Shown in pieces: positions 45,757 through 50,184 of a stretch of 64,000 nt of DNA; the first letter of the stretch is position 1, and each line of letters begins with the position of its first letter. The stretch is from a plasmid. The translations under genes were made by a program, and so were the position numbers. The stretch lies in the NCBI RefSeq assembly GCF_058153355.1, contig NZ_JBLWLY010000002.1, one strand, 5' to 3'. The notes under the pieces were generated by a model. That model was given only the letters and a program-made list of their open reading frames with translations. It was not told the origin of the DNA and did not search any database.

Positions 45757-46029
45757 TTTATCCTTGCCCCGCTGAATGAGGAAACGCTGTTCCGGGGGAT
45801 TATGCTGAACGTCTTCCGTTCACGGTACTGCTGGACGATGTGGCTGGGTGCGCTGATAACGTCGTTGTTGTTCGTCGCCGCGCACAGCCAGTATCAGAAC
45901 CTGCTGACCCTGGCAGAACTGTTCCTGGTGGGGGTGATTACATCAGCGGCCAGGATCAGAAGTGGTGGCCTGCTGCTGCCGGTATTGCTGCATATGGAAG
46001 CAACCGCGCTGGGTTTACTGTTTGGTTGA
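45757..46029 (+). pseudogene. CPBP-family (CAAX/Abi-like) membrane protease, 3' fragment
   Basis: ..EETLFRGIMLNVFRSRY..AAHSQY.. motifs; gene begins abruptly at the miniature element boundary. Confidence 0.55.
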
Positions 46030-46121
46030 CAGTTATATTTTTATTAAACATTGCGCGTTAAAGCCTGGTGTGTTTTTTTAGTGGATGTTATATTTAAATA
46101 TAACTTTTATGGAGGTGAAGA

Positions 46122-46379
46122 ATGCATACCACCCGACTGAAGAAGGTTGGCGGCTCAGTTATGCTGACCGTCCCACCGGCACTGCTGAACGCGCTGTCTC
46201 TGGGTACAGATAATGAAGTTGGCATGGTCATTGATAATGGCCGGCTGATTGTTGAGCCGCACAGACGCCAGCAATATTCACTGGCTGAGCTACTGGCACA
46301 GTGTGATCCGAATGCTGAAATATCAGCTGAAGAACGAGAATGGCTGGATGCACCGGCGACTGGTCAGGAGGAAATCTGA
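46122..46379 (+). CDS. pemI: PemI/Kis antitoxin (copy A)
   Basis: 85 aa MHTTRLKKVGGSVMLTVPPALLNALSLG..; matches R100 PemI as I recall it. Confidence 0.85.
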   Translation: MHTTRLKKVGGSVMLTVPPALLNALSLGTDNEVGMVIDNGRLIVEPHRRQQYSLAELLAQCDPNAEISAEEREWLDAPATGQEEI

Positions 46380-46380
46380 C

Positions 46381-46713
46381 GTGGAAAGAGGGGAAATCTG
46401 GCTTGTCTCGCTTGATCCTACCGCAGGTCATGAGCAGCAGGGAACGCGGCCGGTGCTGATTGTCACACCGGCGGCCTTTAATCGCGTGACCCGTCTGCCT
46501 GTTGTTGTGCCCGTAACCAGCGGAGGCAATTTTGCCCGCACTGCCGGCTTTGCGGTGTCGTTGGATGGTGTTGGCATACGTACCACAGGTGTTGTGCGTT
46601 GCGATCAACCCCGGACAATTGATATGAAAGCCCGGGGCGGAAAACGACTCGAACGGGTTCCGGAGGCTATCATGAACGAAGTTCTGGGCCGCCTGTCCAC
46701 TATTCTGACTTGA
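46381..46713 (+). CDS. pemK: PemK/Kid (MazF-family) toxin (copy A, GTG start)
   Basis: 110 aa (V)ERGEIWLVSLDPTAGHEQQGTRPVLIV..; start is GTG here but ATG in copy B. Confidence 0.85.
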   Translation: MERGEIWLVSLDPTAGHEQQGTRPVLIVTPAAFNRVTRLPVVVPVTSGGNFARTAGFAVSLDGVGIRTTGVVRCDQPRTIDMKARGGKRLERVPEAIMNEVLGRLSTILT

Positions 46714-46978
46714 ACATGGGGGGGTGCCCCTATTAAGTTGTCAAGCATGTTATGACCCCTGCGGGGTATAAAAAGTCCCGTCGCGCATCATGGCGAACAG
46801 AACGTCGCAGCGTCGTCTCGCCAGGGCGATAAGCGCCTGATTGTGTCGTTTTCCCTGACTCATTTTGCGGGTGTAGTAAGCCCTGGAGAGCGGATCCCTG
46901 AGCGCGGCGAAGGCCGACTGTCAACGCCACGATTTTTAACCGTTATTTGCCATTTTCATGCCCGCTAAGATACTTTCG

Positions 46979-47779
46979 TTACTGATGCTGTCCGCTTTCC
47001 ACCATTTCATCATCACTGATTGGCGTTGTGTTTTTGGTCAGCACTCCTGCTTTACGTTTCTCTTTTAACCGGTAACTCTCTCCTTTGATATTCAGCGTGG
47101 TTGAGTGATGTAGCAGCCGGTCCAGGATCGCTGTGGCCAGCACATGATCCCCGAACATTTCTCCCCAGTCTGCGAACCCTTTGTTTGACGTCAGTATGAT
47201 GCTCGCTTTTTCATATCGACGGTTCAGTAGCCGGAAGAACAGGCTGGCTTCCTCTCTGTTCATCGGCAGATAGCCTATTTCATCCAGGATCAACACCCGG
47301 GCATAACTCAGTTGCTGTAGCTGACGCTCCAGCCGGTTTTCCTGTTTCGCTTTCATCAGTGTCGCGATCAGTCTGTCCAGTGGCATAAACAGTACCCGAT
47401 GTCCCGCATCCACCGCTTTCACGCCAAGAGCTATGGCCAGATGCGTTTTTCCTACACCCGGAGGTCCCAGCAGGATCACGTTTTCGCTGCGCTCCACGAA
47501 CGCCAGACCTGCCAGTTCCCGGACAACCTTACGGTCGATGCCCGGCTGGAAGGTAAAGTCGAACTGCTCCAGCGTTTTGACCCACGGCAGACGAGCCTGC
47601 TTCAGCCTGGACTCCATACCGCGCTGATGCCTGCCGTTCCATTCCTGCTGTAGCGCCATGCTCAGGAACTCCCGGTAGTTCAGCTCTTTTTTAGCTGCCT
47701 GTTCCAGCAGGCTTTCAACGTGATAACTCAGATGCTCCATTTTCAGGCGACTCAGCAGGACTTCCAGCTCATGCATCAC
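46979..47779 (-). CDS. istB: IS21-family helper IstB (copy 2)
   Basis: 266 aa, identical to copy 1. Confidence 0.9.
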
Positions 47780-48948
47780 AACAGCTCCTCATAGGCACTC
47801 AGTGGTCGATGTTCCACCTGACTGACCTGCTGCCAGAGCGGGGCGTGATGCTCCGGCACTGTCTGCCAGCCAGACGATGCCGAACAGAGGCGATGTGAGG
47901 CCACCAGTTTCTCATTACTGTAGATCCGCAACTCGTCATCCAGCGATATTCGTATCGATACCGGCTGACCACACAGCGCTTCGGGAACGCTGTAACGATT
48001 ACCACCAACCTCGATATAGCTGTCCCAGGACACATGGCGGATGTCGAAGTAACTGGTATCGAAGTCCGTATCCGGTAACGGCTGCAGATGTTCCTGCTCC
48101 AGCGCGAAGCGCTGTTCCGGCGTTTCTTTGAACTGGCGAAGTTCCCGTTTGTCAGCCACATCGGCTATCCATTGCTCCAGTTGTTGATTAACATGAGTGA
48201 AGCTGTCGAACCTGCGGTACCGGACGAAGAAGTTCTCCTTGAGGTATTTCACCATCCGCTCAACCTTACCTTTTGTTCTGGCCCTGCGTGGACGGCATGC
48301 CCGTGGCAGGAAGTTATAGTGGTCGGCCAGCAACAGGAATCCGGAGTTGAACACGGCTTTCCCGTTGTTATTCTTCAGCACCGCAGCCTTCTGGTTATCA
48401 ACCAGCACCGTTTTCACACAACCACCGAAGTAGCGGAAGGCGCGAACCAGTGATTCGTAGGTATGCTCAGCATCCTGTTTTGGTGCGGCGAAGACATGGA
48501 AGCGGCGGGAGAACCCCAGCGTATTAACCGCAAAGTTAACTTTGCACCGTTGCCCGGCAACCTCCACCTCAACTTCGCCCCAGTCGTGCTGGAGCTGGTA
48601 TCCAGGCTGAGTTTCGAAGCAAACTGTTCTTTTTGACGGACGCATTTTACGTTTGGGCTGGATGTAGTAACGCAGCATGGAACGTCCGCCCGTATAGCCC
48701 ATTGCCTTAATCTCCGCGAAGATAACCTCGCTATTCCAGACATTCTCTGCCAGGCGCATGTCGATGTAATCCATAAACGGTTTCAGCTTAACCATTTTGT
48801 GGCGGGTCTTTCTGGCTGGCGGTTCAGGGTATTTGAGGTAGCGTCTGACCGTCCGTTCAGAGCAACCAATCTGAGTCGCAATATCGACAATGTACGCGCC
48901 CTGCTGGCGCATTTGCTTTATCATGTAAAAGTCCTCTCTGCTCAGCAT
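47776..48948 (-). CDS. istA: IS21-family transposase IstA (copy 2)
   Basis: 390 aa; one substitution relative to copy 1. Confidence 0.9.
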
Positions 48949-49288
48949 GTTGATGTCCTTTCTGGTGTGGGAACCTTAAGGAAACAACATGTTGGGTGGA
49001 GCGGACAATCCAAATGGCGAATTACCGTCTTATATCACTGGCGCTGACACACAGCCAGTATCAGAACCTGCTGACACTGGCAGAACTGTTCCTGGTGGGG
49101 GTGATTACATCAGCGGCCAGGATCAGAAGTGGTGGCCTGCTGCTGCCGGTATTGCTGCATATGGAAGCAACCACGCTGGGTTTACTGTTTGGTTGAAAGT
49201 TATATTTTTATTAAACATTGAGCGTTAAAGCCTGGTGTGTTTTTTTAGTGGATGTTATATTTAAATATAACTTTTATGGAGGTGAAGA

Positions 49289-49546
49289 ATGCATACCACC
49301 CGACTGAAGAAGGTTGGTGGCTCTGTTATGCTGACCGTCCCACCGGCACTGCTGAATGCGCTGTCTCTGGGTACAGATAATGAAGTTGGCATAGTCATTG
49401 ATAATGGCCGGCTGATTGTTGAGCCGCACAGACGCCCGCAATATTCACTGGCTGAGCTACTGGCACAGTGTGATCCGAATGCTGAAATATCAGCTAAAGA
49501 ACGAGAATGGCTGGATGCACCGGCGACTGGTCAGGAGGAAATCTGA
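49289..49546 (+). CDS. pemI: PemI/Kis antitoxin (copy B)
   Basis: 85 aa; a few substitutions relative to copy A. Confidence 0.85.
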   Translation: MHTTRLKKVGGSVMLTVPPALLNALSLGTDNEVGIVIDNGRLIVEPHRRPQYSLAELLAQCDPNAEISAKEREWLDAPATGQEEI

Positions 49547-49547
49547 C

Positions 49548-49880
49548 ATGGAAAGAGGGGAAATCTGGCTTGTCTCGCTTGATCCTACCGCAGGTCATGA
49601 GCAGCAGGGAACGCGGCCGGTGCTGATTGTCACACCGGCGGCCTTTAATCGCGTGACCCGCCTGCCTGTTGTTGTGCCCGTAACCAGCGGAGGCAATTTT
49701 GCCCGCACTGCCGGCTTTGCGGTGTCGTTGGATGGTGTTGGCATACGTACCACAGGTGTTGTGCGTTGCGATCAACCCCGGACAATTGATATGAAAGCCC
49801 GGGGCGGAAAACGACTCGAACGGGTTCCAGAGACTATCATGAACGAAGTTCTTGGCCGTCTGTCCACTATTCTAACTTGA
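49548..49880 (+). CDS. pemK: PemK/Kid toxin (copy B, ATG start)
   Basis: 110 aa MERGEIWLVSLDPTAGHEQQG.. Confidence 0.85.
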   Translation: MERGEIWLVSLDPTAGHEQQGTRPVLIVTPAAFNRVTRLPVVVPVTSGGNFARTAGFAVSLDGVGIRTTGVVRCDQPRTIDMKARGGKRLERVPETIMNEVLGRLSTILT

Positions 49881-50184
49881 ACATGGGGTTTGAGGGACAA
49901 CCGGACGAAAACGTTCGATTTAGGGCACTAAAACCGCTGCTGTTCCCTCATTCAGTGACTGCCCCAGGTTTTTTTCATGCTCTCCAAGATAGGTGTTTCT
50001 GGGCTCTGTTTGGGAAACGTAATCCTATCACACATTTACACCACTGAATTAGATTTCGATTGTGGAGTAATATCTTTAGTAAATAAATTTAGTCTTTCTT
50101 TTTCAGTTGAGAAAATATATCTCTTGGCTTGGGTTGCATTTTTCTTACTAATTAAGTCTGATATATGTTGTGGAGTATTTATTG

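Follow-up and report, generated by a model that had tools for sequence, protein, structure and literature searches.

Two pemIK alleles around an IS21 copy on a pINV-like IncFII plasmid, probably joined by insertion-sequence events and probably redundant

How a plasmid comes to carry the same toxin-antitoxin operon twice, about three kilobases apart, and whether the second copy adds anything to the first, are the questions raised by the pemIK locus of contig NZ_JBLWLY010000002.1 (RefSeq assembly GCF_058153355.1). We analysed a 64,000-nucleotide stretch of this contig, referred to here as the window. It belongs to a pINV-like IncFII plasmid, since it encodes SctC, SctV, SctN, an autotransporter and an IncFII RepA, and it matches the icsA, virA and ospB regions of the pINVs of Shigella dysenteriae, S. 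boydii and enteroinvasive Escherichia coli (EIEC) at 98.5-99%. We are fairly confident that the locus consists of two alleles of the IncFII pemIK system (parD kis-kid) that were joined by insertion sequence (IS) events, and that the two are probably redundant.

The repeat pair and the elements between its copies

A previous reading of this DNA, made from its letters alone and called here the sequence-only reading, had described two diverged 839-bp direct repeats, each with a fragment of a CPBP gene, pemI and pemK. Pairwise alignment bears this out: 45883-46721 (copy A) and 49050-49888 (copy B) align in direct orientation over 839 ungapped columns with 17 mismatches (98.0% identity), and an independent repeat search of the window recovers the same pair with a spacing of 3167 bp. 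The homology stops abruptly, with 0 bp of extension beyond these ends on the left and on the right, and the two are perfectly identical over at most 167 bp in a row. The gene content was confirmed by Pfam matches and by comparison with R100, whose pemIK is the same system at approximately 98% nucleotide identity over the 839 bp; in each copy, pemI and pemK follow the final 147 bp of a CPBP/Rce1-like gene and 92 bp of intergenic sequence. The reported difference in the pemK start codon (GTG in copy A, ATG in copy B) and the few amino acid differences between the copies are also visible in the alignment. The features of the region are as follows.

45883..46721, plus strand: direct repeat copy A (alignment, repeat search)
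45758..46029, plus strand: remnant A of the CPBP (Rce1-like intramembrane protease) gene, approximately the last 90 of 217 codons (PF02517, E=4.8e-9)
46122..46379, plus strand: pemI-A, antitoxin of 85 aa (PF04014), R8K, Y47H and P50Q relative to R100 PemI
46381..46713, plus strand: pemK-A, MazF-fold endoribonuclease toxin of 110 aa with a GTG start (PF02452), T96A relative to Kid/PemK
46719..46918, minus strand: 3'-terminal 200-bp fragment of an IS110-family element (ISEc20/ISSfl4-like), 3' of pemK-A and cut by IS21
46919..49049, minus strand: complete IS21 of 2131 bp
46979-47779, minus strand: istB (IstB_IS21, E=1.2e-90)
47776-48948, minus strand: istA (rve, Mu-transpos_C_2)
49050..49888, plus strand: direct repeat copy B (alignment, repeat search)
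49050..49196, plus strand: remnant B of the CPBP gene, its last 49 codons, cut by IS21
49289..49546, plus strand: pemI-B, 85 aa (PF04014), R8K, M35I, Y47H and E70K relative to R100 PemI
49548..49880, plus strand: pemK-B, 110 aa with an ATG start, the same protein as R100 PemK and R1 Kid

Neither copy keeps a full-length CPBP gene, and what is left in both are remnants; the homology of remnant A to the R100 CPBP gene begins at 45756. The sequence-only reading had also placed the second copy exactly at an IS21 terminus, which is correct, as base 49050 adjoins the left terminus of IS21 at 49049. Its description of the repeats as bracketing an IS21 copy holds in part: IS21 lies within the spacing, but it is accompanied there by the IS110-family 3' end. 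IS21 was recognized by its termini (TGTCAACGCC... at 46919, ...GGCGCTGACA at 49049), by Pfam matches and by 98.6-98.8% identity to annotated IS21. The IS110-family sequence is 100% identical over its 200 bp to the 3' end of ISEc20 in the EIEC O121 pINV NZ_CP119442.1 and matches ISEc20/ISSfl4 in many Shigella plasmids. It is a 3' fragment and not a complete element with a DEDD transposase, hence not a functional IS, and its end is ambiguous inside the G-run 46718-46725.

These two elements set the inner edges of the repeats, the right edge of copy A coinciding with the IS110-family insertion and the left edge of copy B with IS21. The former can be attributed to the insertion because the A-type allele in AP045071.1 (GCA_053902965.1) runs on into native downstream sequence (CATGGGGGGGGAGGGG...). 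The IS110-family insertion after pemK-A must have preceded that of IS21, given that a Logan contig from SRR30347328 (L013) contains the same pemK-A/ISEc20 junction with ISEc20 uninterrupted over 1396 bp. As a separate observation, transcription of istAB runs in the direction of the ISEc20 fragment and pemK-A (from 46979 to 46919 and on into 46381-46713), with no terminator-like site predicted on the way, so that read-through from istAB would be antisense to pemK-A.

A simple insertion of IS21 is expected to leave a target-site duplication of 4-5 bp. The copy at 46919-49049 is flanked by CGAC and CACA, with no such duplication, and its present flanks therefore did not arise from one simple insertion; the identity of the element as IS21 is unaffected. 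The window contains a second copy in inverted orientation relative to the first.

13148..15278, plus strand: second IS21 copy, flanked by ACAA and CTGC, no target-site duplication

Simple insertion with a target-site duplication was ruled out by the same 4-5 bp flank comparison, and simple inversion between the two inverted copies by the flanks themselves, as ACAA/CTGC and CGAC/CACA are at odds with it. The two copies differ by 5 substitutions only, all in the first 197 bp of the left end and one of them within the terminal repeat (TGTTAGCG vs TGTCAGCG). This confinement to 197 bp suggests a recombination or conversion tract. The second copy sits between apparent fragments of other IS transposase genes.

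Origin of the two copies

The simplest explanation for two similar copies would be local: one pemIK locus was copied in place, an event associated with IS21 being one way, and point mutations later set the copies apart. The copies are in direct orientation and only 3.2 kb from each other, with an intervening IS, as such an event would leave them, and the upstream flank of A and the downstream flank of B together rebuild the normal IncFII backbone order. The distribution of the 17 differences among other plasmids points elsewhere. We compared both copies with those of R100, pUMNK88_K88, a Salmonella Newport plasmid and E. coli C5 plasmid A. Nine positions of copy A, and four of copy B, match none of these plasmids. 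At 8 of the 17 differing sites, including those responsible for the GTG start, P50Q and T96A, the base of copy A is shared with AP045071.1, and at 3 further sites it is shared with R100 and pUMNK88_K88, with copy B carrying the common-pool alleles at those sites. The A-specific polymorphisms thus occur in plasmids outside this lineage.

AP045071.1 shares with copy A not only these bases but an entire block, consisting of a RelE-like toxin and helix-turn-helix (HTH) antitoxin gene pair, a miniature inverted-repeat transposable element (MITE)-like element, a truncated CPBP gene, pemI (P50Q) and pemK (GTG, T96A), at 99.5% over 1767 bp, and it has one pemIK in the 20 kb examined. Copy B shows 7-9 differences from ordinary IncF alleles, and together with its downstream flank it is collinear with pB7A/C5-type IncF plasmids at 98.8-99.0%.

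Between the copies, the synonymous divergence (dS) is 0.053 and the ratio of nonsynonymous to synonymous divergence (dN/dS) is 0.18, values that mark two functional alleles kept under purifying selection as they diverged and not a young duplicate or a decaying pseudogene; by our own estimate, this dS is large for a duplicate within one IS-rich plasmid lineage. The lack of a target-site duplication at IS21 also stands against a local copying event, which we regard as very unlikely. Considering the A alleles in AP045071.1, the match of the B flank, the dS and dN/dS values, the IS21 without target-site duplication and the near-identity of the two IS21 copies, the copies are best read as two allelic lineages merged by an IS-mediated rearrangement and not as an in-situ duplication.

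A different concern is that a single pemIK locus was expanded by mis-assembly around IS21. Mis-joins classically arise at IS elements and repeats, and we found no record spanning the 4.9-kb arrangement, or any one of its junctions, in PLSDB (72,556 plasmids) or among the complete RefSeq E. coli genomes, so that no annotated precedent or precursor was found there. Against this, the 17 differences follow two natural allele lineages, and both alleles recur in an independent short-read E. coli assembly, GCA_043012465.1, with the same junctions up to IS21.

In that assembly, the A allele lies on a 3529-bp contig (DAXYJU010000151) that corresponds to window positions 43389-46917 at 99.5% over 3529 bp and ends at IS21. 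The B allele is on a contig of 8567 bp (DAXYJU010000119) that corresponds to 48971-57536 at 99.95% over 8567 bp and begins 79 bp inside the left end of IS21; within pemIK, 0 (A) and 1 (B) differences separate them from the window copies. The linkage of A and B is seen there only indirectly: an assembly broken at IS21, with the alleles on separate contigs, is what a short-read assembler would give from a real A-IS21-B structure, and an artefact is unlikely because both alleles are present there on contigs that end at IS21. The pemK-A/ISEc20 junction occurs in a third data set as well, that of L013. Mis-assembly is therefore highly improbable. The repeat is genuine, an unremarkable outcome of plasmid mosaicism. 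As a side observation, GCA_043012465.1 is nearly identical to the window apart from 14 clustered differences in the IncFII repA (43394-43544), which could mean that the repA allele is recombinant or that the contig end is artefactual.

If the two copies are merged lineages, the following course of events may be proposed. Module A comprises repA, oriR, the RelE/HTH pair, the MITE, the truncated CPBP gene, pemI-A and pemK-A, at the native R100-like site by repA, and an ISEc20-type IS110 element inserted just 3' of pemK-A. Module B comprises a truncated CPBP gene, pemI-B, pemK-B, a DUF4238 remnant and the rest of an F-like backbone; it is part of the common pemIK allele pool, its CPBP gene having been truncated by an IS21 insertion. 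The segment ending in pemK-A and the truncated ISEc20 would then have been fused to the truncated CPBP gene and pemIK-B, most plausibly by homologous recombination between IS21 copies, by IS21-mediated cointegration or by an adjacent deletion.

One lineage seems to account for the specific arrangement and for both rare PemI sequences, the exact PemI-A sequence being found on only 2 contigs of the protein collection and the exact PemI-B sequence on 1. In PLSDB, pemIK matches occur at 4082 places in 4019 records, and a few other plasmids have more than one; among them, CP057779.1, which has two, was rejected as a comparable tandem, since its second place is not within 9 kb. A literature search for duplicated pemIK, or for pemIK on pINV, returned nothing specific.

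Toxins, antitoxins and operators

PemK is a MazF-fold endoribonuclease that is neutralised by the labile PemI. Together, the two proteins repress their operon at operator regions I and II, and plasmid-free segregants lose PemI and are arrested. Both PemK copies match PF02452 with E=1.8e-29 over profile positions 1-109 of 109, and they differ from each other by a single residue, T96A. PemK-B is 100% identical to PemK of R100 and to Kid, and PemK-A to Kid (PDB 1m1f) at 109 of 110 positions; the substituted residue is presumably not one of those catalytic in Kid. From this identity, growth arrest and sequence-specific endoribonuclease activity may be expected of both toxins. The antitoxins match PF04014, the N-terminal DNA-binding domain of MazE/AbrB type, with E=1e-6 to 2e-7, are identical to R100 PemI at 81-82 of 85 residues and differ from each other at three (M35I, Q50P and E70K, from A to B). 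In both copies, a 1-nt gap separates the pemI stop from the pemK start.

The operator-promoter of R1 parD has been footprinted, and the sequences of its regions I and II are available (PMC1865072). Both regions, a palindrome (I) and a pseudo-palindrome (II), lie 5' of pemI in the two copies and are the same in A and B.

46032..46049, plus strand: parD/pem operator region II (GTTATATTTTTATTAAAC), copy A, exact match to the R1 sequence (PMC1865072)
46087..46104, plus strand: parD/pem operator region I, copy A, an 18-bp perfect palindrome overlapping the -10 element
49199..49216, plus strand: operator region II, copy B, exact match to the R1 sequence
49254..49271, plus strand: operator region I palindrome, copy B

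A 30-bp probe of R1 region I, which holds the 18-bp palindrome, matches exactly at 46083-46112 and 49250-49279, and the pem promoter is assigned on the basis of this exact identity to the footprinted R1 operator-promoter. Both pemIK operons look functional in sequence, and each copy should act as an autoregulated post-segregational killing module.

Cross-repression and cross-neutralisation are expected because the operators are identical, the toxins differ at one residue and the antitoxins at three, and neutralisation across the copies seems very likely. The IncF and IncL/M variants of pemIK, at 92% nucleotide identity, both stabilise plasmids, and do so equally well (PMC7326226); MazE, a more distant relative, interacts weakly with Kid (PMC10305079). 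The pair is thus most likely redundant, and would act as one addiction system at double dosage.

The sequence-only reading had raised recombination between the repeats as a way of deleting the intervening IS21, and this is physically possible: RecA-dependent recombination would leave one hybrid copy, with IS21 lost and no post-segregational penalty.

The opposite possibility is that the pairs are functionally distinct or interdependent and that both are kept by selection, for example an attenuated PemK-A alongside a weakened antitoxin, or a PemI-B whose E70K is compensated by PemI-A. Several features would fit. Homologue cluster representatives have Pro at position 50 of PemI without exception (96 of 96), and PemI-A has Gln there, with PemI-B retaining both P50 and W74; position 70 is E, Q or G among these representatives, never K, and it is K in PemI-B. 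The start of pemK-A is GTG in place of ATG, and both copies persist, still distinct, in GCA_043012465.1. In L013 (1-300), moreover, a 14-bp deletion corresponding to window positions 46203-46216 frameshifts pemI-A and leaves pemK-A (GTG, T96A) intact, a state that would need either neutralisation in trans or an attenuated toxin.

Set against this, the A allele is the sole pemIK in the examined part of AP045071.1, the toxins are one residue apart under identical operators, and pemIK variants that lie much further apart show the same behaviour (PMC7326226). The deletion in L013 may be a sequencing error, since L013 is one raw Logan contig with Nextera adapter sequence at its end. Selection for two non-redundant pairs is, in our judgement, unlikely.

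A more specific form of this idea is that lineage A is naturally attenuated (GTG, Gln50), that PemI-B is charge-reversed by E70K at a position which we take, by analogy with MazE, to be part of the toxin-binding tail, and that the copies buffer each other in trans. We consider this quite unlikely. If it were true, mutual dependence would hold the IS21-containing interval in place, or one antitoxin might decay, as is hinted by the deletion in L013.

Redundancy of two merged alleles is the reading we retain, and several points weigh against it or limit it. Both antitoxins have an unusual substitution, P50Q in PemI-A and the charge-reversing E70K in PemI-B, so that the two need not be fully equivalent in function. 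The exact IS21 event is beyond reconstruction, as neither IS21 has a target-site duplication and the flanks are unfit for simple inversion. A second pemIK may exist elsewhere on AP045071.1, outside the 20 kb compared. A consensus sigma-70 promoter scan gave no call for the pem promoter. Finally, what is said here of toxicity, neutralisation, cross-repression and deletion frequency is inference.

Known relatives and plasmid neighbourhood

The closest well-known systems are pem of R100 and parD (kis-kid) of R1, which share with the window the order repA, CPBP, pemI, pemK, operator regions I and II and practically the same toxin. They have one pemIK copy, in contrast to the two found here, where both CPBP genes are truncated; they lack the GTG start and T96A of pemK-A, P50Q of PemI-A and M35I and E70K of PemI-B; and they reside on resistance plasmids, whereas the window is part of a pINV-like plasmid that codes for a type III secretion system. 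Relative to R100, module A keeps the order repA, oriR, CPBP, pemI and pemK, and the RelE/HTH pair and the MITE replace approximately 470 bp of R100, including the 5' part of the CPBP gene. The system is the classical pem/parD at its usual IncFII site, present twice owing to plasmid mosaicism.

AP045071.1 differs from the window in that the native sequence after pemK is intact, with neither ISEc20 nor IS21, and in that a Tn3-family transposase truncates the RelE-like toxin gene on the left. The EIEC O121 pINV NZ_CP119442.1 shares the RelE/HTH pair, the MITE and the truncated CPBP stub, but its homology to module A stops 66 bp into the CPBP remnant, and an IS91-family transposase gene is annotated approximately 190 bp further on.

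The pINV is described as an IS-dense IncFII virulence plasmid whose structure is shaped by recombination between ISs (PMC5629016), and it carries several toxin-antitoxin systems (PMC10383432). The repertoire given in the latter source comprises VapBC, GmvAT and CcdAB, plus RelBE in S. sonnei, and does not mention pemIK, so that the present locus adds in a minor way to pINV diversity. A pINV-type plasmid with two pemIK alleles and a RelE/HTH pair beside its IncFII replicon has some relevance to pINV stability. The locus also illustrates cleanly how IS110 and IS21 events can join two homologous plasmid backbones, and PemI P50Q, PemI E70K and the GTG start of pemK are natural variants for studies of Kis-Kid stoichiometry. 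Its importance is otherwise limited, and it does not challenge the current understanding of toxin-antitoxin systems or insertion sequences.

Directly upstream of pemIK-A lies the third toxin-antitoxin pair, followed by the MITE-like element.

44873-45471: Gp49/RelE-like toxin (103 aa) and HTH_3 antitoxin (95 aa)
45472..45756, no strand assigned: MITE-like element of 285 bp with 45-nt inverted repeats (GGGG...ACGTTAAG), from repeat search and sequence

This pair may be the RelBE reported for the S. sonnei pINV. The MITE-like element, whose inverted repeats we take to be of the Tn3 family from their appearance, is located between the stop codon of the HTH antitoxin gene and CPBP remnant A, without a 5-bp target duplication, and it cuts the 5' side of the copy A CPBP gene at 45757/45758; the MITE/CPBP junction is also present in AP045071.1 and NZ_CP119442.1. 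A 27-nt direct repeat (GCGGTTTTGGTGTCCGAAATCGTACAA), 26 of 27 nt identical, links 45562-45588 inside this element with 50722-50748, approximately 850 bp downstream of pemK-B, and no wider homology surrounds either occurrence. A composite element bracketed by a second Tn3-type MITE was considered and rejected, this 27-nt stretch being the only other match.

Two minor observations concern the sequence beyond copy B. On the minus strand at 50185-50541, 3' of pemK-B, there is a 118-aa DUF4238 remnant of a protein that has approximately 370 aa where it follows pemK in pB7A/C5-type plasmids. Further on, the parM/stbA partition gene at 51350-52283 (minus strand) appears frameshifted, with overlapping open reading frames (ORFs) of 100 and 254 aa; StbA/ParM of AP045071.1 has 320 aa, and in the window only the C-terminal ORF matches ParM models.

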